Shown here: piece after piece, positions 47,271 through 57,764 of the stretch
Position numbering within the stretch: position 1 is the stretch's first letter
Layout of the letters: each line of letters opens with the position of its first letter
DNA from: Escherichia coli
GTDB lineage: Bacteria > Pseudomonadota > Gammaproteobacteria > Enterobacterales > Enterobacteriaceae
Length of the DNA: 64,000 nt
NCBI RefSeq assembly: GCF_013315695.1
Contig: NZ_CP054353.1
Reading direction: 5' to 3' (one strand)
Translations under genes and position numbers: made by a program
Notes under the pieces: model-generated
The model's database searches: none
What the model saw: the letters and a program-made list of their open reading frames with translations, nothing else
What the model was told of the DNA's origin: nothing

Positions 47271-47355
47271 GCCGAAGTGGCGAAATCGGTAGACGCAGTT
47301 GATTCAAAATCAACCGTAGAAATACGTGCCGGTTCGAGTCCGGCCTTCGGCACCA
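47271..47355 (+). tRNA. leuX: tRNA-Leu (anticodon CAA), 85 nt with long variable arm
   Basis: Sequence gccgaagtggcgaaatcggtagacgcagttgattCAAaatcaaccgtagaaatacgtgccggttcgagtccggccttcggcacca. Confidence 0.95.
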
Positions 47356-47889
47356 TCTACATTTTCCTCTTGAAAAACAAGCGATTAAGTAAATTATTTT
47401 ACCTTTTTTGCCTATCTAATCTTCACTGATTCTTTCCCGTATAAAAGCCACTGTGATTGTTAATGGCTTTGGTATGTTAGCACGCAGTGGCAAGTAGTTA
47501 CCAGGCTCAACCTTGTACTGCATACGCCAGTATGCCCCCCTTTGAAGCAGGAAGACGCGCCGCCGTCTCTAAACCTATGCCAAGCACTTTTAACCGTTCC
47601 ACACTTAGTTCGGCGTTCCGTTCAAGCCTGTCGTGGTGACTTACCACGAATAAACAAGCAAATTCGCGGTATGGTATTCGTTACGAGAGCGGTTAACTGA
47701 CAAGACTCCTGTGATACGCCTAAGGTGCTTAAATTGATGCGTCCAACATGGCACAAAAGGCGGTCTATCGTTTAATTTTGCTCCATACATCAACTGGCAT
47801 TGCCAGCTGTATGGGGCTTGGTCTGCTGGTTCCGATGAACGGATTAAATTGCTAAGATGCAGACCATAAGCCATAAGGCGGAGATAAGT

Positions 47890-49098
47890 ATGAAATCTGT
47901 AGAACTATTTGCCGGTGCTGGTGGCTTGGCTATGGGTTGCGAAATTGCTGGTTTTGAGCATCTTGCAGTCGTTGAATGGGATAAATGGGCCTGTGATACC
48001 GTTAGAGAGAACAAAAAGAATGGCTTTCCGCTGTTGTCTGATTGGGATCTTTTTGAGGGTGATGTAAGAGAATTTGATTGGTCGAAAATCCCTAAAGGGA
48101 TTGACCTTCTTGCGGGAGGGCCACCTTGCCAGCCATTTTCAATCGGTGGTAAGCACAAGGCTAATTCTGATTCGCGGGACATGTTTCCAGCGACAGCAGA
48201 AGCGATCAGGCAAATTCGCCCTAAGGCTTTCATCGTCGAGAATGTGAAAGGCTTAACACGGGCAACCTTTGCGAGCTATTTCCAGTACATCCAGTTACAG
48301 CTTGAGTTTCCAGAAGTAGCCCCGCGAAATGGCGAAGACTGGAGCGAGCATTTAAAACGCTTGCAGGAAGAAAAAACCAGTGGAAAGAACAAAGGGAGAG
48401 GGCTGACGTATAACGTTCTGGCTACGTTAGTCAATGCAGCAGACTACGGCATCCCACAAAAACGTGAGCGTGTCTTCATTGTTGGCTTCCGCGATGATCT
48501 TGAAATTGAGTGGTCGTTCCCTAAACCGACACACAGTTATGATGCACTCGTTTATGATCAGTGGGTTACTGGTGATTACTGGAAACGACATGGTTTAGAA
48601 ATGCCAACTGTTCCAAGCCAGATGGTTAACCGTATCGCAAAATTGCGTAAAAATCCTCCCGATACACTTCCGTGGAAAACTGTTCGAGATGCAATCGCGG
48701 ATTTGCCAGATCCTGAAACAAAGGCGGCAAAGATGATCCGGAATCATGCGTTCCAGGCGGGGGCACGAACTTATCCCGGTCATACCGGAAGCCCCTTAGA
48801 TCTGCCAGCTAAAACGCTCAAAGCAGGTGCTCATGGCGTTCCTGGGGGCGAGAACATGCTTGTTCGTGATGATGGCTCAGTACGCTATTTTACTGTGCGA
48901 GAAAGTGCCAGAATTCAAACATTTCCCGATAGTTATCGTTTTCACGGGAGTTGGACTGAAACTATGAGGCAGTTAGGTAACGCTGTGCCGGTTCATTTGG
49001 CGTATTGCGTTGCCAGCAGTGTAGCGGAAAAGCTGCTGACCTCTGAAATTGGGAACATCCTTAAGCAGGGTGGCAATTATAAAAGGGCTTCTGCATGA
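47890..49098 (+). CDS. DNA (cytosine-5)-methyltransferase, Type II R-M modification subunit (~402 aa)
   Basis: C5-MTase motifs I FAGAGG, IV PPCQPFS, VI ENV, VIII QKRERVFIVG, X GNAV; SD GGAG upstream of ATG 47890 (ORF track starts at 47857). Confidence 0.85.
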   Translation: MKSVELFAGAGGLAMGCEIAGFEHLAVVEWDKWACDTVRENKKNGFPLLSDWDLFEGDVREFDWSKIPKGIDLLAGGPPCQPFSIGGKHKANSDSRDMFPATAEAIRQIRPKAFIVENVKGLTRATFASYFQYIQLQLEFPEVAPRNGEDWSEHLKRLQEEKTSGKNKGRGLTYNVLATLVNAADYGIPQKRERVFIVGFRDDLEIEWSFPKPTHSYDALVYDQWVTGDYWKRHGLEMPTVPSQMVNRIAKLRKNPPDTLPWKTVRDAIADLPDPETKAAKMIRNHAFQAGARTYPGHTGSPLDLPAKTLKAGAHGVPGGENMLVRDDGSVRYFTVRESARIQTFPDSYRFHGSWTETMRQLGNAVPVHLAYCVASSVAEKLLTSEIGNILKQGGNYKRASA

Positions 49099-49745
49099 CA
49101 GGAAAGGTCATACCATTTAATCCACTTGATAAACAAAATTTAGGTGCCAGCGTTGCGGAAGCCTTATTGAGCAAAGATGCTCATCCTCTGGAGGAGTTAA
49201 CCTCATTTCAAGGAGCAGGGATTTACGCAATTTATTACACTGGCGATCATCCTGCTTATAGGCAACTGGCAGAACTGAATCGTGACGGGCAATTTCGATT
49301 GCCTATCTACGTGGGTAAGGCCGTCCCAGCAGGGGCGAGAATGGGGCTTACCAACCCTGATAAGGTTGGTAACGTTCTGTTTAGGCGCTTGAAAGAACAT
49401 GCAGAAAGTATTCGCGCAGCGGAAAATCTTTCGATTGAAGATTTTTATTGTCGATTTTTGGTTGTTGATGACATCTGGATCCCATTGGGAGAATCGCTGG
49501 TTATCTCTCGCTTTAAACCGATTTGGAATTCGTCTATTGATGGTTTCGGTAATCATGACCCAGGTAAGCATCGCTACACTGGTTTACGTCCTCGCTGGGA
49601 CTTTATGCACCCGGGGAGAGGATGGGCTCAAAATTTACGTGAGCGTGATGAAACTGTGGATGAACTCATTCGTGATTCTATACAGTATCTTCAGAATTTA
49701 CCGCCTTGCTTGGCTCAGAAATTTATCGAAGCTGAAGGCGATTAA
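49095..49745 (+). CDS. GIY-YIG-family restriction endonuclease, Eco29kI/Cfr42I-like (216 aa)
   Basis: GIY...YVG motif (GIYAIYYTGD...RLPIYVGKA); start overlaps the MTase stop (ATGA). Confidence 0.65.
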   Translation: MTGKVIPFNPLDKQNLGASVAEALLSKDAHPLEELTSFQGAGIYAIYYTGDHPAYRQLAELNRDGQFRLPIYVGKAVPAGARMGLTNPDKVGNVLFRRLKEHAESIRAAENLSIEDFYCRFLVVDDIWIPLGESLVISRFKPIWNSSIDGFGNHDPGKHRYTGLRPRWDFMHPGRGWAQNLRERDETVDELIRDSIQYLQNLPPCLAQKFIEAEGD

Positions 49746-49866
49746 TCAGCAAATGATCATCGGAGGCATCTGCCTCCGAATGTGATTAAGCCTTGGTTGA
49801 CAAAGTGGTTGCTTAAAACATTAAGCGTTAATTTTCTGGCCCTCTACCTTCTGACGTGCATAATTC

Positions 49867-50442
49867 TCAAATATCAGGGAGTTGCAAGAACGACTTAAGT
49901 CGGTAGAAGGTTGCTTTGCTGATCTCTAACCTATCCTGGACCGCTGCTGGTGGTAATCCTCGTGCTAATAACTCACGTACTTGTTCAACGGTTGCTTTGA
50001 TCGGTCTGCCGCAATGCTTACCTTCCGACTGAGCTCGTTTGATTCCTGCGGCTCTACGCTCTGCGATTAGGTCTTTTTCCAGGCTGGCAAGTCCTGCCAT
50101 CATAGTGAGCATGGCTTTACCCACTGGTGTTGAAAGATCAAACCCCTCTCGCAAGCTGACAACCTTCACACCCTTCATTTGCAACATTTCAACAGTAGAT
50201 AGTACATCGATAGTGTTACGTCCCAAGCGGTTTATAGCAATCACGATCAGCGTATCGCCTTCTCGCACATAATTGAGTAGTTCAGCAAACCCTGGACGCT
50301 CTCCTGCCTTGATTGCACCACTCACCGCTTCATCACTAAACCAGCGAGTTACGCTATAACCAGCATCGGCTATCTGCTTCTTCTGGTTTTCAACGTTTTG
50401 ATCGCTGGTGGAAACTCGCACATATCCGATCACAGTTGTCAT
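49867..50442 (-). CDS. Serine recombinase, resolvase/invertase family (191 aa)
   Basis: N-terminal catalytic motif IGYVRVSTSDQ and C-terminal HTH. Confidence 0.85.
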   Translation of the reverse strand: MTTVIGYVRVSTSDQNVENQKKQIADAGYSVTRWFSDEAVSGAIKAGERPGFAELLNYVREGDTLIVIAINRLGRNTIDVLSTVEMLQMKGVKVVSLREGFDLSTPVGKAMLTMMAGLASLEKDLIAERRAAGIKRAQSEGKHCGRPIKATVEQVRELLARGLPPAAVQDRLEISKATFYRLKSFLQLPDI

Positions 50443-50454
50443 GATGTTCTCTAA

Positions 50455-50576
50455 GTCTCAAAAGGTAGTGTCAAAATAATAGCTGTCTCAAAATTAAAGA
50501 TCAACCTTTTGAGACAAGGCGAAGCCGCATTCTGTCGTTGCGTCGGTGTGGTCTTATAAGGAGATGGTTTTGAGAC
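50455..50576. promoter_or_regulatory. Candidate res/recombination site: GTCTCAAAA repeats upstream of the serine recombinase
   Basis: GTCTCAAAA at 50455 and 50485, GTGTCAAAA at 50468, inverted TTTTGAGAC at 50507 and 50568. Confidence 0.45.
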
Positions 50577-50681
50577 TGGATAGCAGCGGTTTAGGAATAG
50601 AGGCTTGGAACGAGAGTATGGGGAGAATGGAAATTCGGAATGGGCGGTCAACTTATTGGGCGTGATTGCTCACGCCTTTGT

Positions 50682-51033
50682 TTAGATCTCAGAACACAGG
50701 CTCAGCGTGTAGAGTGCCGTTTCACCATCGTTGTTAGTTGGGCGCATAACGAAAACTGGATCACTGCCGTTGTCGATGTAAGTAACCGCTATTCCACCGT
50801 CTGGGGTGGCGTACATCTTCGCAATACTTTTCTCTCCAATGAAACCCAGCCGCCAGGTTTTACCACCCATGCTCACTTTCATGATTTTGTCCCGCACATC
50901 GAGGCGAGTTTCGACAGACGATTTTTGGCTACCAGAATCTATCTGCCCTTCCTGAATGGCCTTACAGGTGAATGTGGTTGCACTTGAGGCGAAGGGGGGG
51001 GACGAGCAGCGCCGCGAGAATCAATTTTTTCAT
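50682..51033 (-). pseudogene. Small secreted protein gene interrupted by a G8/C8 homopolymer frameshift (possible phase-variable gene)
   Basis: ATG at 51033 encodes signal peptide MKKLILAALLV then 8 C at 50994..51001 shifts frame; 7 or 10 C would join it to the 71-aa ORF 50682..50897. Confidence 0.5.
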
Positions 51034-51213
51034 GGTCTTCCTTTTGGATACGAGTTAAGAGTTCGTCGGGAGACATTATAAAATCTTTAATTGATAAAAA
51101 CGATCAATTTCTATCGTATTGATCGATAAAATTGATCATAATTGAAACTATAAATCCTACGCTCAGTCGTTATGGATGAGGTTTTTTATAAGAGAACTCA
51201 ACGGGATGATGTT

Positions 51214-51420
51214 ATGAAAAGAGCAATGATGGTGATGTGTGGGCTACTGTTTTCACAGTTGGTAGCAGCAGGGCAGATCACAATGATCGATCCCCAGCAG
51301 GATACGACGGAGAATGGCAAGACGCTTTGCACCTACGAGAACAGCCAGTATGTTTTTACCTACGTCACTAAAGGGCAGTGCCCCTATGCAAAGACTTTCG
51401 ATACTCAGGATTCAGAGTAG
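51214..51420 (+). CDS. Small secreted cysteine-containing protein (68 aa from MKRAMM)
   Basis: Signal peptide MKRAMMVMCGLLFSQLVAAG; mature part has two Cys (TLCTY, GQCPY). Confidence 0.5.
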   Translation: MKRAMMVMCGLLFSQLVAAGQITMIDPQQDTTENGKTLCTYENSQYVFTYVTKGQCPYAKTFDTQDSE

Positions 51421-52604
51421 AGGCTGCATAAAATAGGAAGTGTTGTTTAACTTCATGAAAAGACAGGTGTGCTTAGCACAAGCCTCCAACGGATTGATTG
51501 TTAATTCTTCTGATAACGGCACAGCGCAAGGCTTTACGCAAAGAGAGTGATAGTTACTATCTTGATGACTATGGCAATTTTCCCCCTGTAACAACGGCAT
51601 TCATTACCTGCTAATTACCAGCGGATTACGCGCCAGTTTGATGGGAATTAACTCAGGGTTATTGCATGGGGTAGTGTGGAGTGAGCAGGGTGACAGTCTA
51701 CCGTTGGGTGAAGGGCTGATAGGTAATCGACGCGAAGCGCCGGAACCATACTGTTATGCGCTGGCCTTGGTGCCAGGCTCACGCCGCGCATGAAAGATAG
51801 CCATTACAGGAGAGATAATTTTTGACAAGTTACCTTCATCAAAGGTGCTTCTCCTGTATAAATGCTTGTTATGCTCGCTATGCTCCCAAACACAAACCCA
51901 TTAAACCCAACTAACTTAAGGTTAGTTAATTGGTTTTCTCTCTCTCTTGGGCTACTACCGCCCAAACTTTGCTTAATGCCATACAGCGACTACGCCGCCA
52001 TTAACAACACTCCACAATGATCCAATGGCATTCCTGCTTAATGTCATCCACCGATCTTGATTAGCCACCAACCAAACAACCACCCTAAATCTTTTAGGCT
52101 GTCTGTTTATCTGGTGCAAGGTAGCTATGACATTACCATACGTGCAAACATCCCAAGCCAATCATCACTGATTGGCTCGTGCTGATGCACTTCAGTGCAG
52201 AGAGAGAATCTCTCTACTATTATAGCGTATTTAGTAGGTCCCTGTATTTAAAGGAAAAATTAGGGTGAAAATCGCCATTGTTCACTTTTTTTCTCAAGAA
52301 ATGGCGAGATGCTGTTCGTAAATGGGAGGCATGGCTGTCTTCTCTGGTGGCAAGTTCTACCACAAATTTTGATTGACAGCAACCATCTATTTCTGGTATA
52401 AGAAGCACTAATTGCAAAGCAAAAATGCAACTAATTGAAAATGACCAAAAATATTTCATGAGATCACCGTTTGGGTATTGACAAACGTTAGTGGTCTATG
52501 GTATTCTTAATACTAAGAAGGGGAGAAAACCTTCTGAACTTTTCAGCCCTGGGCAGGGTAACTGCCTGGGGCTTTTTGCATCCAAAATCCGAAGGAGGCC
52601 ATTA

Positions 52605-52781
52605 TTGAAGTATTACAGCAGTGACCAGATTTTTAATGACCTGGTGAGCGGCGAAGTGAAACGCCACGTTATTTACGCATCTATGCAAGCAGCAAAATCG
52701 AGAGGGTATACAGACCGAATGGAAATGTTTCAATCTGCAATTATCCGTTATGACCAACACCGAAGGGAGAACACCAACTAA
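52605..52781 (+). CDS. Hypothetical small protein (58 aa, TTG start)
   Basis: Perfect SD AGGAGG 6 nt upstream of TTG 52605; stop overlaps the next gene's SD; function unknown. Confidence 0.4.
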   Translation: MKYYSSDQIFNDLVSGEVKRHVIYASMQAAKSRGYTDRMEMFQSAIIRYDQHRRENTN

Positions 52782-52790
52782 GGAGGAACA

Positions 52791-53711
52791 TTGATTCAAG
52801 CATACGAAGACGGCTATTTTTACAGAGATACCCCGCACCACGATCACTGCCCGCTTTCAGCATTTTCCAGACCATCCCAGCAATTCATCGTTATTGATAA
52901 TGTTCTGTACGTTGTCGAAGTGGAAAGTGGTGAAATTCTTCACTACGACTCGACAGAGTATTTGCTTGATGGTGGCATTGTTCAGGATCTGCATTTGAGT
53001 TACTCGACAGCAGACACCGCCAAATCAAAACAGGCTCACCGTGAATACGCTAATAAGCTGGGCGACCTTCCAGGGAATGCAGCCTATAACGGGATCAAGG
53101 AATACGCAGACGTATTAAGCAAGCCAGATTTCAAGAAAGTATTTGCATTGTGTCAGGAAGTAGATAGACGCAATGTAGTGTTTATAAAACGTGCGGATTT
53201 GAGCATAATACTGAACACCACGCCGGATCATCTCAATCGTGTATTATCTGCTCTTGAACGTAAGCACTACATCAAAGTTGATAAAGCTGAACACCAGAAA
53301 GGAGTATTAAAACTGTGGGTTAATCCTTCGTTTGTCTGGAAGGGTGATTCAGCTAACCGCTACTTATCTGGATATTTGCAGGGCTTCCCAATCTTGGAAC
53401 GTAAACGCTCCACAAAACGTTCTGACGTGCTCGACACGCTCACGGCTGCTGCAATGGTTGCCTTTGATACCTGGCACATTGAACACGGTTATAAGGCCAA
53501 TCAGCCTCATTCTAATGAATGGTATGCAGAGATCACGATGTACGAAAACGCCTACGGCGAAGGGGTGAGGCTTGCAGCAGAAAATAAGACATTGAACAAG
53601 TTATTGAACCCGGCAACATCTGAGGGGGATTTCGTTTATGAGCTATTCACTACGGCACAATACAGGGAATACCTGCAAACATTGGCAAAACAAGTAAGGA
53701 GATTACACTGA
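52791..53711 (+). CDS. Hypothetical protein (306 aa, TTG start) with possible winged-helix region
   Basis: SD AGGAGG at 52781..52786, TTG at 52791; N-terminal His/Cys cluster (HHDHCP); central helix-rich segment; no recognised catalytic motif. Confidence 0.6.
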   Translation: MIQAYEDGYFYRDTPHHDHCPLSAFSRPSQQFIVIDNVLYVVEVESGEILHYDSTEYLLDGGIVQDLHLSYSTADTAKSKQAHREYANKLGDLPGNAAYNGIKEYADVLSKPDFKKVFALCQEVDRRNVVFIKRADLSIILNTTPDHLNRVLSALERKHYIKVDKAEHQKGVLKLWVNPSFVWKGDSANRYLSGYLQGFPILERKRSTKRSDVLDTLTAAAMVAFDTWHIEHGYKANQPHSNEWYAEITMYENAYGEGVRLAAENKTLNKLLNPATSEGDFVYELFTTAQYREYLQTLAKQVRRLH

Positions 53712-53995
53712 ACCAATGTTTTGTAATAAAGAAGCCAGCACAATACTTATTTGAACTAAATTAAGCAACTCTCATACACACCGCTCTTTTGGTGAGTTAT
53801 TTATTACTATCTTTAAGGTGATGAGTGTTTATACTGTATTAAATTATTATAAATAAGGGGATGGTGTATGATTACAGCTCTTTATTGGTGTTTGTTCTTT
53901 CAGTTTGCGCTGTATTTTTTGTCTAAATTAAATTTAAATTGAAAATTAGCCCTGATCTTGAAATAGTTCAGGGCTGGAATTTCTAAAAAATAACA

Positions 53996-54955
53996 TCAGT
54001 GTGCTTTTAGTTCATCTTTAGCTAATGAGTCATAGAGTATTTTTGTGAGCGGAGACTCTAAATAATCATCACTAAGTAGTTTAATAAAATGCTTTTGGGA
54101 TTCTTTTGTTTTTACGAGCAATTGTGTGCCGTCTTCACTTACAATTAAAACTGTTGAAAGATAGGTATGCTTGCTTACATAATCGATAATTTCTGGCACA
54201 TCAATTTTCCCCAGTACAGGTGAGTGTTTGGCAATTTTGGCAAGCTTCCTTGAGAAAGAAATTTCTTTTGCACTCTTCTCAAGGTGAGTAAGATCTTCGA
54301 TAAGCAATGAAGCTTTCAATGCTTCCAAAGCCACCGTTGCTTGAGCTTCAATAACCTGATGGAACTGCATCGTTATTTCTAAAGTTTTTTGATTTTTTAT
54401 CAGGAATTCGTCGTCTATAAGAGCCAAGTCATAATTATAATCTAATCGGAACACTTGGGTTGGCAATTCTTTTAAATACCCGTCTGCGTCTGGTATCAAG
54501 TTAAACAATTTTCGGCTTTGCTCAAAAACCATGAGGTTTGTTTTGTTCTTATACAATGACAAACACTTATTGTTGCCTCTTAACTGAATTATTATCCCTT
54601 TCACGTCAGTAAATTTATTATTTAAATCATAATAATCCTGAGAGTTAGGCGGTATGGCTATTGCATTTTTTATAAAATCAAACTCTTTTGGATGTTCTTC
54701 ATAATCAAATGCAAACAAGGCATTTTTTCTATCATCAAAATTCGAAAGGAGAGGAATGGTTAAATCCTCATTTGTCACAATGTCGTCGTAAAGCCTAATT
54801 TTGAATCCTTCAACAATTTTTGGTAAAGCTTCAGCATCTATTTTAGATAATTTTAATTCATAATTATCTTCAGTTTTAACTATAAAGATAATTCTTATAC
54901 CTGAGAAATTATCGAAAATTTCGGTGATTTGATTTTTAAAATTCACAGGGGTCAT
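53996..54955 (-). CDS. Candidate Kiwa KwaB-like (DUF4868-like) defence protein (319 aa)
   Basis: AT-rich soluble ORF coupled by 1-nt TAATG overlap to the upstream 4-TM protein; assignment is by architecture only. Confidence 0.45.
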   Translation of the reverse strand: MTPVNFKNQITEIFDNFSGIRIIFIVKTEDNYELKLSKIDAEALPKIVEGFKIRLYDDIVTNEDLTIPLLSNFDDRKNALFAFDYEEHPKEFDFIKNAIAIPPNSQDYYDLNNKFTDVKGIIIQLRGNNKCLSLYKNKTNLMVFEQSRKLFNLIPDADGYLKELPTQVFRLDYNYDLALIDDEFLIKNQKTLEITMQFHQVIEAQATVALEALKASLLIEDLTHLEKSAKEISFSRKLAKIAKHSPVLGKIDVPEIIDYVSKHTYLSTVLIVSEDGTQLLVKTKESQKHFIKLLSDDYLESPLTKILYDSLAKDELKAH

Positions 54956-55542
54956 TATTTTTTCCTTGCTATGAAAACGTAGTCATCAAAAAAACTATAG
55001 AATACTTGATCGTCAACAGTCAGCACATCCATCGAGATTGCAATGACGTTTTTTACTTCACCACTTCCTGCATGAGAAATGTTAACTCTATACAACTTAT
55101 AACCGAAAAGCGCCAAAGTAGGATTCGCATAATACTTATCCGTTTTAATGAAAATTAAACCAATAACTACTATTAAGAGAAAGTACGCAATGTTTTTCTG
55201 AGGGTCATCAAAACTGAATCCCATAAAAGGTACTATGTAAGTTGCTAAGAAAGTCAAACTTTCATAGCTCTCACTTTGGCAAGCAGTGATTGTTACACAG
55301 TCAGCATTGTTGACCTTCGTCAATCCTTTAAACCTTCTATAGAAATAAAATGCTATTCCTATAAAAATTAAACAAATTATTGAGATTATGTTGCTGGAAG
55401 CTAATTGATAAAAACCTATAAAATGGCAGGAAGAGCCATAACAAAATGGGATTTTTGCGCTCAAAATGATAATAAAAACAAACAGCAACATTAAAGACAG
55501 TATGTATAGTCCCATCTTGTTGAATGTGCTTTTTCGTTTCAT
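54955..55542 (-). CDS. Candidate Kiwa KwaA-like membrane protein (~195 aa, four predicted TM helices)
   Basis: Four hydrophobic segments; start taken at MKRKSTF with GGGGGA SD (ORF track starts 10 codons upstream). Confidence 0.45.
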   Translation of the reverse strand: MKRKSTFNKMGLYILSLMLLFVFIIILSAKIPFCYGSSCHFIGFYQLASSNIISIICLIFIGIAFYFYRRFKGLTKVNNADCVTITACQSESYESLTFLATYIVPFMGFSFDDPQKNIAYFLLIVVIGLIFIKTDKYYANPTLALFGYKLYRVNISHAGSGEVKNVIAISMDVLTVDDQVFYSFFDDYVFIARKK

Positions 55543-55826: not shown

Positions 55827-56078
55827 TTATTTACGGTTTTTGTTGGATTGAGCCAGCACGGAAGCAGCAAGCTGCTTGGTTAAAGTACTGGAACGTGGAT
55901 TATCCAGCGCCGCAGATGCTTTATGTTCCATTGCACCACTTGTCTGATTTGAGGAACCTTTTTGAGAGAGAGCTGAACCAGCAAGGCTCTTCTGAATTGC
56001 AGATGCGTTGGGGTTGTTTAGGGTTTGTGCTGCGACTGATGCGACTTTACTTGATGTTTGCTTTGAATTGTTAGCCAT
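55827..56078 (-). CDS. Hypothetical low-complexity Ser/Ala/Gln-rich small protein with ~20-aa internal repeats (83 aa)
   Basis: Repeats of A-[AS]-x-[LA]-x-Q (SVAAQTLNNP / SLAGSALSQK / SAALDNPRSS / LAASVLAQSN); no TM segment. Confidence 0.35.
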   Translation of the reverse strand: MANNSKQTSSKVASVAAQTLNNPNASAIQKSLAGSALSQKGSSNQTSGAMEHKASAALDNPRSSTLTKQLAASVLAQSNKNRK

Positions 56079-56309: not shown

Positions 56310-57587
56310 CTATTTATCAGTTTTCTCACGTTGGGGCTCCGTCTCTATCTCTGGGTAACGTAATAGCTCGATGTATGGCTGTAGTTCAATCGGAGATGCT
56401 GCATTCTTGCTGTACGTCTTGAAACTTTCTGTAGAGCCGCGCTCATGACCCAAGAGAAGTGCGATCCGGTCTTCTGTAACTGGTTTTAACTTACCTCGTC
56501 CAACCCCCCCACGATCCAGAATCTGCGCCACTGCATGGCGTAGACTGTGAAAAACTTTCAACTCTGATCCTACTTCCCCCAATGCCTTACGTTTAGCCCT
56601 CGTAAAACGCTGTGAATGCCACGTAGAGCGCTTTCCATCTGCGCGGTCAGCTATCGACGCACGATAGAATAAAAAGCCGTTATGGGGCTTCTCACGCAGC
56701 GACAAAACCAACGGAGTGATCAGGCTATGCACCGGAATAATACGGGCTGCTGATTTGGTCTTCCCCTCCGTCACTTCGAAACATAACACCCCTTCAATCT
56801 CTCGGATGTTGGCTGCACGTAATGAACAAATTTCATTCAGGCGCATACCGCTATACATCCCGATCAGCGTTACATTTTGCATCTCTTCATCATTCGCCAT
56901 CACAGCGAACACCTTCGCCAATTCTCCAGGCTCAAATACTTCATAACTCACCTTGCTACTTTTGGCCTCCAGCGCATGACCGCGCCAGATGTTTTCTTGC
57001 GGTGCATCGTGGTAGCGATTACGGGCCAGATCCCAGATTTGAGCCAGTGCGCTGACATAGTTTTGTATGGTCTGTGGTGCTTTCTCCGTCTTGAGCTGAT
57101 CAAGCCAGCCTGTAACGGTGGTTCGGTTAACGTCACGAAGCTGAACATCACGCTTTTTCAGATGTTCTAAGAGCACTTCAACAGCCTTGTTTGTCTTCGA
57201 TAGCGTAGTGAGTTTGCGCTTCTCGCTGAACTGCAATAGATAAAGATCACGCATTTTCAGGAGGGATGGCACTCCTTGGGATTGGGTATTGCTCATGACA
57301 TGCTGAACAGGTGTTTCATGAACTCGGGCGCTAACTCTGCGTAGCTCTGCAATTGCCTGCTCAATCTTACTCCCTTCTCTTGGTTTGACCTGTTCCCGTA
57401 AACGTATCCATTCAACAGCGATAGCATCTCTGAACAATCGCGCCTGACGTATGTCACTTGTGCCAGTGCTCTTGACGAAGTAGCGCTTGTTGCCAAAAAG
57501 CGAGCGCATGTAAGCTGGAACGGTAATCCTTACCAGATAGTTTCCGCATGGATCTAAAACTAAGTAACGATCTCTCTTGAAACTCAT
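56310..57587 (-). CDS. Tyrosine site-specific recombinase (island integrase), ~425 aa
   Basis: C-terminal catalytic region with conserved R...HxxR...Y (SLRHAVAQ ... ESFKTYSK); adjacent to island att repeat. Confidence 0.85.
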   Translation of the reverse strand: MSFKRDRYLVLDPCGNYLVRITVPAYMRSLFGNKRYFVKSTGTSDIRQARLFRDAIAVEWIRLREQVKPREGSKIEQAIAELRRVSARVHETPVQHVMSNTQSQGVPSLLKMRDLYLLQFSEKRKLTTLSKTNKAVEVLLEHLKKRDVQLRDVNRTTVTGWLDQLKTEKAPQTIQNYVSALAQIWDLARNRYHDAPQENIWRGHALEAKSSKVSYEVFEPGELAKVFAVMANDEEMQNVTLIGMYSGMRLNEICSLRAANIREIEGVLCFEVTEGKTKSAARIIPVHSLITPLVLSLREKPHNGFLFYRASIADRADGKRSTWHSQRFTRAKRKALGEVGSELKVFHSLRHAVAQILDRGGVGRGKLKPVTEDRIALLLGHERGSTESFKTYSKNAASPIELQPYIELLRYPEIETEPQREKTDK

Positions 57588-57707: not shown

Positions 57708-57750
57708 ACCGTAGAAATACGTGCCGGTTCGAGCCCGGCCTTCGGCACCA
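57708..57750 (+). repeat. Direct repeat of leuX 3' end (island attR), 43 bp with one mismatch
   Basis: accgtagaaatacgtgccggttcgagCccggccttcggcacca versus tRNA 47313..47355 (T in the tRNA). Confidence 0.9.
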
Positions 57751-57764
57751 TCGGAACATCAATA

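Follow-up and report, generated by a model that had tools for sequence, protein, structure and literature searches.

What is the function of about a kilobase of DNA that carries no gene, in a small chromosomal island of Escherichia coli? The stretch in question occupies positions 51421-52604 of the window (the whole 64 kb, or 64,000 nucleotides (nt), of E. coli chromosome that was analysed, which is 100% identical to strain EcPF7 over the query). Two 45 bp direct repeats at the tRNA gene leuX bound the surrounding island, which measures 10,395 bp, and the stretch precedes an open reading frame (ORF) of 58 amino acids (aa) and the gene for a 306 aa winged-helix protein (Table 1). The stretch is non-coding, has a definite anatomy, is conserved among related islands and is inherited together with the neighbouring family of winged-helix, Rep-like proteins. 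Our favoured explanation, held with about equal measures of confidence and reserve, is that a small integrative island at leuX, derived from elements that resemble phage satellites, has here the non-coding control region of its replication module.

With an ORF cut-off of 80 aa applied to the whole window, positions 51421-52490 (1,070 nt) form the longest ORF-free stretch, and the runner-up is 603 nt long. Within it there are scattered ORFs of 30-79 aa in all frames and nothing longer. A first-pass annotation had placed a gene-free stretch at 51421-52477. That stretch is real and its left edge stands, but its right edge moves to 52604 because 52605 is the start of a 58 aa ORF that is conserved and has the Shine-Dalgarno sequence GGAGG. 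The promoter, leader and terminator described below sit just past the earlier right edge and had been overlooked. The palindrome quoted at that time does exist, as AGAGAGA-gaa-TCTCTCT, and is one of about eight local hairpins; the CT-rich run is likewise present. The window differs by one TC unit in this (TC)n run from E1739, Cronobacter, Kosakonia, Klebsiella and Enterobacter kobei, which is a slippage polymorphism in non-coding DNA.

The left part of the stretch, 51421-51719, consists of a promoter region and the dead remains of a gene for a small helix-turn-helix (HTH) regulator. Three-frame translation reveals an intact 58 aa ORF in ETEC1732, ending in ...AVSRATIYRWVK, of which the window retains only CGVSRVTVYRWVKG* in frame (the last 14 codons), with stops upstream. 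Relative to intact copies, approximately 115-120 bp are absent between 51676 and 51680, including HTH helices 1-2. Intact ORFs of 58-67 aa are found at the same position in ETEC (L005), Erwinia (L006, protein P0001), Raoultella (L007, protein P0002), Enterobacter chuandaensis (L015) and E. coli B (L017), and the precomputed Pfam labels of the intact copies are HTH_23/HTH_7. A search of 5.8 billion proteins gave two matches only, 'resolvase HTH' proteins of 62 and 67 aa from Raoultella and Erwinia, both encoded at this position in related elements. The block upstream of the HTH gene, CGGCACAGCGCAAGG.TTTA.GCA, is kept in all island types, and a distant blastn search finds relatives of the first 300 nt, roughly 70% identical, in about 100 other E. 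coli genomes, within islands at the thiamine pyrophosphate (TPP) riboswitch of thiM. A 50 aa RefSeq 'hypothetical protein' (WP_001311340.1), annotated in some genomes at about 51641-51793, is an out-of-frame reading across the HTH gene relic and is probably spurious.

An intact homologue elsewhere and a disrupted copy in the window thus coincide for 51421-51719 only. The earlier suggestion of a decayed gene holds for the left quarter and fails for the remainder. Likewise, an intact gene in related islands, which had been named as the finding that would identify a gene remnant, accounts for part of the stretch and leaves the rest unexplained. A dead gene does not explain the stretch as a whole, because even where the HTH gene is intact it is followed by approximately 1.0-1.1 kb without a credible ORF before the small M[KR]YF..DQ ORF.

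The next part of the stretch is a hairpin-rich block (51720-52310), whose right half, 52038-52310, is the slowest-evolving sequence of the island and diverges less than the flanking genes. In a comparison with Kosakonia (87% identity overall), 51550-52150 has 1-3 differences per 100 nt and most of the flanking sequence has 6-57; the comparison with E1739 has the same divergence minimum. About 190 nt (roughly 52038-52225) are almost invariant in an alignment of eight sequences from six genera, among them the E. kobei element, whose flanks are unalignable or unrelated and whose Rep-like protein is 78% identical. The thiM-type islands do not share the left half, 51720-52037. A profile of the block finds diverged homologues in the related loci L025, L026 and L028, and homologues are recognisable where the neighbouring Rep-like protein is only 35-54% identical. 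Short motifs that persist in the diverged homologues are GTGCAAGGTA.CTATGACA, TCAGTGCAG, TAT.TATAGC and GATTTA.TA.GT. A protein gene hidden in the core was considered and rejected: the candidate, a 62 aa ORF on the minus strand (51973-52161), is broken in E. kobei and Buttiauxella. The breaks in this only sizeable ORF are indels of 1 and 2 nt, located in the loop of a hairpin amid near-invariant sequence, and so the block is non-coding.

The approximately eight local hairpins, a density above that expected by chance, lie between 51800 and 52220, each with a folding z-score of -3.4 to -5.4 relative to shuffled sequences. The longest is kept in all eight window-type sequences, and in distant lineages its stems change on both sides. 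Its outer stem is AATGTCAT/ATGACATT in the window versus ATTGTCA/TGACAAT in a diverged lineage, and its apex is CCTAAA/TTTAGG versus CAATC/GATTG. In L025, L026 and L028, hairpins are retained although the stem sequences are different. The adjacent A+T-rich segment (52216-52310) is present and conserved, bracketed by an 8 bp inverted repeat whose arms, TCGCCATT and AATGGCGA, also change together, to CCTCATT/AATGAG in E. kobei and TCTTCA/TGAAG in L026.

Three routes led to the relatives: the small ORF, which gave 9 genomes, proteins homologous to the 306 aa one, and a profile search of 1.84 billion proteins. In every relative found, the small ORF and the Rep-like gene are preceded by 1.0-2.3 kb of DNA free of ORFs, and this gap is kept even where the Rep-like protein is only 35-54% identical to that of the window. 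In sister lineages the gap contains three to five direct repeats, spaced 22-23 or 32 bp apart, directly after the HTH gene; the gap of E. coli B has two repeat copies at 48 bp spacing. In most repeat-bearing lineages an AT-rich tract comes next, with repeated AATAAGAT or TATTAGATCA-type motifs and GATC sites (AAGAT/GATC-type). The repeats are not the sites of the HTH protein, because the HTH recognition helix is constant across lineages. ETEC1732 and L015 have the same repeats and Rep-like proteins that are 89% identical, and the same is true of EC96 and Erwinia (96% identical). The Rep-like proteins of Kluyvera and Raoultella are 46% identical, and both lineages have a 32 bp period with differing repeat sequences. 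Elsewhere, too, a different protein is accompanied by different repeats. A repeat type that tracks the Rep-like protein is the pattern that would be expected of an origin and its initiator, and this co-variation in the sister lineages supports a binding role for the protein. The slot of the Rep-like gene is filled by several unrelated winged helix-turn-helix proteins or by a P-loop helicase, depending on the lineage. An origin was among the possibilities raised initially, and by analogy with these co-varying repeats and AT-rich GATC tracts an origin or other cis-acting site is the best-supported reading of the stretch beyond the gene relic.

Fuller relatives (E. kobei, Raoultella, XYEH3934, L025 and L026) encode lambda-E-type major capsid, Ant-like and tape-measure-like proteins, and for this reason the family looks like phage satellites. 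The window island looks like a derivative in which the capsid module has been swapped for Kiwa and restriction-modification. The block is inherited with the winged-helix Rep-like family and not with the capsid genes. E. kobei and Raoultella differ in Rep-like protein and in gap content despite capsid proteins that are 87.5% identical. The Rep-like family and the block are common to E. kobei, L025 and L026, and the capsids of E. kobei and L026 are only about 22% identical to that of L025. The tape-measure-like protein of the capsid-encoding elements (L023/L024, L007, L003/L010, L025 and L026) is approximately 617 aa long and matches phrog_16051 (E = 6e-102). There is no recognisable terminase or portal gene in the parts of these elements that were seen, nor a match to a described satellite family, and they have no relatives in IMG/VR.

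The right part of the stretch contains predicted signals for transcription toward the small ORF. The -10 hexamer of the best sigma-70-like promoter differs in E1739 and Cronobacter and is still the consensus-like TACTAT, and equally good predicted promoters occur at the equivalent place in L025 and L026. In EC96, L025 and Raoultella the small ORF is likewise immediately preceded by terminator hairpins with U-runs, unrelated in sequence. No promoter was found on the minus (antisense) strand of 50900-52900. By sequence prediction, the arrangement is that of an attenuator: a promoter, a terminator within about 100 nt of it and just before the first ORF, and retention in relatives. It suggests that the replication module is preceded by attenuation control or by a small RNA.

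The small ORF itself has a TTG start and belongs to a conserved protein family, M[KR][YW]F..D[QD].... It is annotated in E1739 (WP_001417235.1) and missing from the EcPF7 annotation, and it is a real gene that the annotation of the window's genome lacks. The 306 aa protein that follows occupies the slot held in other lineages by Rep-like or helicase proteins. The relatives in the Rep-like slot have weak matches to phage replication-initiator families (E about 1e-3), and no Rep-like relatives were found in IMG/VR.

From these observations we infer origin activity, protein binding and attenuation, arranged as follows. The segment at 51421-51719 is the promoter region and remains of the small HTH regulator gene after loss of about 115-120 bp. 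The segment at 51720-52310 would be a cis-acting site for the winged-helix Rep-like protein, that is, the replication origin of the excised element, its operator, or both; this origin and operator function of the core is reasoned by analogy, and we put its being right or wrong at about level. Within 52332-52604, two tandem sigma-70-type promoters would drive a leader about 65 nt long, closed by an intrinsic terminator, and this leader and terminator may act as a transcription attenuator, or yield a small RNA, that sets expression of the module.

Several observations weigh against this explanation. The signatures of a classical repeat-based origin are absent from the window lineage, because it has no repeat array, no DnaA box and a single site resembling that of integration host factor (IHF). 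For the array, a tandem-repeat search (TRF), a repeat search and a mismatch-tolerant k-mer search of the stretch all remained at chance level, and its repeat families are no larger than in shuffled sequence. For the DnaA box, TTATNCACA does not occur in the stretch within one mismatch. The one IHF-like match falls in the gene-relic part, and no GATC-rich tract was detected in the stretch. Both the sequence and the predicted fold of the 306 aa protein identify it only as a generic MarR-like winged helix. Membership of a known initiator family was sought through Pfam, PHROGs, NCBIfam, sequences of the PDB, the profile search of 1.84 billion proteins, AlphaFold and Foldseek, and was rejected since all of these gave only the generic winged helix. 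Its AlphaFold model has a mean pLDDT of 70.7, and Foldseek found no solved structure that matches the model at E <= 0.001. A role as initiator is proposed from its position and by analogy. In addition, the paired changes in the palindromes fit structure in RNA or in single-stranded DNA equally well, and the low divergence of the block could be due in part to recent recombination, the family being visibly mosaic.

The main rival is that the module (about 51800-52310) is transcribed, probably from the plus strand, into a non-coding RNA that is long and structured, or into a structured leader of the operon of the small ORF and the winged-helix gene. We regard this as unlikely, although the folding of the module is far above that of shuffled sequences, with z = -7.2 for 701 nt of the plus strand and z = -4.7 for the 296 nt block at 51940-52235. 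Several hairpins are maintained by two-sided changes in diverged lineages, one stem in L026 and L028 requires a G-U pair on the plus strand (as read from the alignment), and the genes flanking the module all point in the plus direction. CA-rich, G-poor tracts of the plus strand also recur in all lineages. However, the minus strand folds about equally (z = -3.3 and -5.3, respectively), and the long hairpin is more stable on the minus strand than on the plus strand, as for DNA palindromes. The homologous blocks of L026 and L028 do not fold above shuffles (z = -1.7 and -1.1). A conserved global RNA fold for the thiM-type gaps was rejected: over 530 columns the consensus reaches only -52 kcal/mol, and its covariation term, +0.86, is unfavourable. 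The block has no convincing promoter upstream or terminator downstream in the window, and a scan of 49000-55000 against Rfam 15 at E <= 1 gave only a chance match to IS102 RNA outside the stretch (51100-51194, E = 0.64, 24 bits against a gathering score of 46). The non-coding RNA of the initial suggestions is thereby not borne out as a member of a known family, and a retron RNA specifically is rejected, since Rfam gives no match to one and the island encodes no reverse transcriptase. Taken together, the folding, Rfam and promoter results lean toward a DNA cis-element with a few selected palindromes. A different way to accommodate the same palindromes is that the hairpin array acts in single-stranded DNA, as an origin of transfer (oriT) that hijacks a conjugative helper or as a single-strand initiation or promoter element that comes into use after transfer. 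Folding with DNA parameters (z = -5.4) is in favour, as is the layout, in which a variable inverted repeat is followed within a few bases by the conserved A+T-rich ..TATTATAGCG.ATTTA.., much as a relaxase-binding repeat stands next to a nick site. According to a preprint, relaxase-less islands with only an oriT are common and have defence genes near the oriT (bioRxiv 10.64898/2026.01.13.699239); that report is the source of the hypothesis and not a match. This single-strand reading is nevertheless improbable: no plasmid in PLSDB matches the whole stretch, or 51780-52240 even at E <= 5, the core occurs among E. coli genomes only in the seven copies of the window-type island, there is no relaxase or mobilisation gene in the island, and the capsid and tape-measure-like proteins of sister elements point to phage rather than conjugative transfer.

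That same satellite-like gene content is what gives some appeal to a packaging site, as initially proposed, in which the block would be a cos or pac signal for the terminase of a helper phage: an element with lambda-E-type capsid, Ant-like and tape-measure-like genes would need one. We consider this quite improbable, since none of 50,697 phage records is similar beyond chance even at E <= 10, IMG/VR contains no relatives (and no exact 24-mer of the stretch), and the block both segregates with the Rep-like gene rather than the capsid gene and is retained in islands that have no capsid gene at all. Finally, the stretch could be, promoters aside, decaying DNA with no function of its own, given the gene relic in its left 300 nt, the frameshift in the neighbouring 116 aa gene of the window genome and the fact that the thiM-type islands do not share 51720-52037. 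This is very improbable in view of the core, which varies less across six genera than anything else in the island, has homologues that are recognisable next to a protein of 35-54% identity and maintains its stems by paired changes, and in view of the ORF-free kilobase found at the same place in every lineage examined. An invertible switch operated by the neighbouring serine invertase-like recombinase was rejected as well: long-range inverted repeats are weak and not conserved, over 100 genomes include no inverted copy, and all compared copies (7 in E. coli, 102 thiM-type copies in E. coli and approximately 20 other loci) are collinear.

The non-coding control region that we favour may also be something more unusual. 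The 300-600 nt block (51720-52310) could be a structured nucleic-acid element of a new kind, either RNA or DNA working in single-stranded form, which defines the cis module of an undescribed family of small integrative elements of Enterobacteriaceae and controls replication, immunity or transfer in a way unlike classical repeat-based origins. Some members of that family encode a capsid, and others have Kiwa, restriction-modification, Hachiman or TIR instead. We offer this broader proposal tentatively and think it rather unlikely. A literature search found no description of the island family or of the block, which is not proof of novelty.

The coordinates of the island, of the stretch and of their parts are collected in Table 1.

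Table 1. Island at leuX and parts of its ORF-free stretch (window coordinates).
Feature	Position	Strand	Remarks
tRNA-Leu(CAA), leuX	47271-47355		Sole tRNA call by ARAGORN
attL	47313-47357	+	45 bp direct repeat, 3' end of leuX
Eco29kI-type methyltransferase and endonuclease	47857-49745	+
Serine recombinase	49867-50442	-
116 aa gene (phrog_35183, function not assigned)	~50682-51033	-	Frameshifted in window genome
68 aa signal-peptide protein	51214-51420	+
ORF-free interval, 68 aa gene to 58 aa ORF	51421-52604	none
Conserved upstream region and N-terminal remains of HTH gene	51421-51674	+	Holds family-wide block CGGCACAGCGCAAGGCTTTACGCA...GATAGTTACTATC
Weak promoter-like TTTACG-16-TACTAT	51533-51560	+	Read by eye from sequence
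C-terminal relic of HTH_7/HTH_23-type gene (CGVSRVTVYRWVKG)	51675-51719	+	Stop at 51717-51719
Left half of hairpin-rich module	51720-52037		Motifs kept in distant lineages: TAGGTAATCGACGCGAAGCG (51722-51741), GCATGAAAGATAGCCATT (51788-51805)
Stem-loop	51805-51856		Left half of module
CA-rich tract	51884-51912		Left half of module
Palindrome	51909-51927		Left half of module
(TC)n run	51936-51948		Left half of module
Hairpin	51947-51965		Left half of module
Long imperfect hairpin	52038-52135		Outer stem TAATGTCAT/ATGACATTA, CA-rich 5' arm, apex CCTAAA-tct-TTTAGG
Palindrome GCCAATCA/TGATTGGC	52156-52177		First of three in a row (52156-52215)
Palindrome GCAC/GTGC	52187-52198		Second of three
Palindrome AGAGAGA/TCTCTCT	52199-52215		Third of three; AGCTAC/GTAGCT in L026, AGACTC/GAGTCT in L025
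Conserved A+T-rich tract	52216-52310		ACTATTATAGCG.ATTTAGTA.GT...AAAGGAAAAA
8 bp inverted repeat around T-rich spacer	52272-52279 / 52300-52307		Arms TCGCCATT / AATGGCGA; closes A+T-rich tract
Block conserved across all island types	52332-52415	+	Conserved irrespective of reading frame
Promoter-like TTGACA-18-TATAAG, TG upstream	52373-52378 / 52397-52402	+	Within 52332-52415; hexamers read from sequence
Best sigma-70-like promoter of region, TTGACA-18-TATTCT	52478-52507	+	10/12 matches, TG motif
Leader or possible small RNA, ~65 nt	52512-52580	+	Hairpin GAAGG/CCTTC, then intrinsic terminator
Intrinsic terminator	52545-52573 (stem)	+	12 pairs, then TTTTT (to 52578); just before Shine-Dalgarno sequence of 58 aa ORF
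58 aa ORF	52605-52781	+	Unannotated in window's genome
306 aa winged-helix protein	52791-53711	+
KwaB and KwaA	53996-55572	-
83 aa protein	55827-56078	-
Tyrosine integrase	56310-57587	-	DUF6538
attR	57708-57752	+	Second 45 bp repeat copy, 98% identical

Islands of the window type, at 96% identity or more, are present in 7 of 5,426 complete E. coli genomes. Outside E. coli the island is common, for example in Cronobacter, and one variant of the Rep-like protein is indexed in 730 blocks of an assembly collection. In E1739 and other genera, the 116 aa gene that is frameshifted in the window genome is intact. The divergent promoter region between this gene and the 68 aa gene (51087-51145) contains the GATC-containing repeats TTAATTGATAAAAACGATCA and TTGATCGATAAAATTGATCA at a spacing of 32, and the only Rfam match in that region is the chance-level one to IS102 RNA. 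Because a second, decayed island directly follows attR (about 57949-64000; a P4-type integrase pseudogene, then remnants of IS3, IS66, IS110 and IS21), leuX holds tandem insertions.

The insertion site of the sister islands is the TPP riboswitch that lies upstream of thiM. The riboswitch lies at 1616-1711 and 12584-12681 in L005, at 12410-12506 in L004 and at 11977-12073 in L017. Since it is annotated at both ends of the ETEC1732 island, the attachment site appears to be within or next to the riboswitch, apparently with duplication of the latter on insertion. E. coli B REL606 (L017, NC_012967, about 2,140,580-2,142,801), BL21(DE3) and its derivatives carry an IS1-truncated remnant of the thiM type, in which the HTH gene, of 60 aa, is intact and which also comprises about 990 nt of gap, the small ORF and a Rep-like gene for 221 aa. 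On the left side of the gap there is a small serine recombinase of the resolvase/invertase type (185-191 aa) in some lineages, and a short tyrosine recombinase (about 190-212 aa) replaces it in others. Recombinase loci at this place are 49867-50442 in the window, 8419-9036 in L007, 7136-7717 in L003 and 2707-3285 in L023, with further ones in L013, L014 and L009. The 8 bp inverted repeat ATCATTGT-GG-ACAATGAT adjoins the tyrosine-type recombinase. Such non-orthologous replacement suggests a common job, which may be the resolution of dimers of the excised circle. One backbone carries defence cargo that varies by host, namely a TIR-domain protein, Hachiman (HamA and helicase), AIPR/Abi-like genes, or Eco29kI restriction-modification with Kiwa; cargo slots are at 4001-6616 in L005, 3198-6667 in L006, 5947-6969 in L004, and 103-1958 and 6201-7746 in L018.

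Small islands of this family are widespread in Enterobacteriaceae and bring anti-phage systems to fixed sites, namely tRNA-Leu and the TPP riboswitch of thiM. The only feature kept by every member is the non-coding kilobase, and in the window lineage it evolves more slowly than the surrounding proteins. If it is the origin and control region, it offers a handle for testing whether these defence islands are active replicons or satellites, and for finding their helpers and members that gene-based finders have overlooked. Should it be an RNA, it would count as a new large regulatory RNA of mobile elements. Two corrections to annotation also follow, one to a RefSeq 'hypothetical protein' that is probably spurious and one to the window's genome, from which the 58 aa gene is missing.

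How does the locus compare with known systems of replication control? Leader attenuation is known from the antisense-RNA-controlled rep leaders of the pT181/pIP501 type and from the immunity leaders CI RNA of phage P4 and C4 RNA of P1 and P7. In contrast to the former, no antisense promoter was found in the window (50900-52900), and in contrast to the latter, the stretch has no Rfam match. The window island also differs from P4 in lacking a P4 alpha-type primase and in its integrase, which has DUF6538 rather than Arm-DNA-bind_3, although it resides at leuX as well. The likeness is in the layout: a predicted promoter, a short leader and an intrinsic terminator stand directly before the first ORF of the replication module in four lineages, with unrelated sequences. 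The Ff filamentous phage intergenic region and the single-strand initiation and promoter elements of conjugative plasmids were also compared. They resemble the block in having several hundred non-coding bases of consecutive hairpins with an A+T-rich segment; this likeness is one of sequence features, and no sequence similarity to plasmids or phages was detected. Moreover, unlike Ff phages, the relatives encode a lambda-type capsid protein for double-stranded DNA.

The remaining comparison is with iteron origins, such as P1 oriR and that of plasmid pSC101, and with satellite origins, such as the ori next to rep in SaPI/PICI elements and the ori and crr of phage P4. The locus differs from these origins in several ways. 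The window lineage is without a repeat array and DnaA boxes, the region is unusually long at 1.0-2.3 kb, its most conserved part consists of hairpins approximately 300-600 bp from the repeat position of the sister lineages, and the adjacent 306 aa protein matches no known initiator family. In other respects there is a likeness. As in iteron and satellite origins, the non-coding region adjoins the gene of a DNA-binding protein, and the replication-gene slot is interchangeable between lineages. In the sister lineages, as in iteron origins, three to five direct repeats in helical phase co-vary with that protein and are followed by an AT-rich tract with GATC sites.

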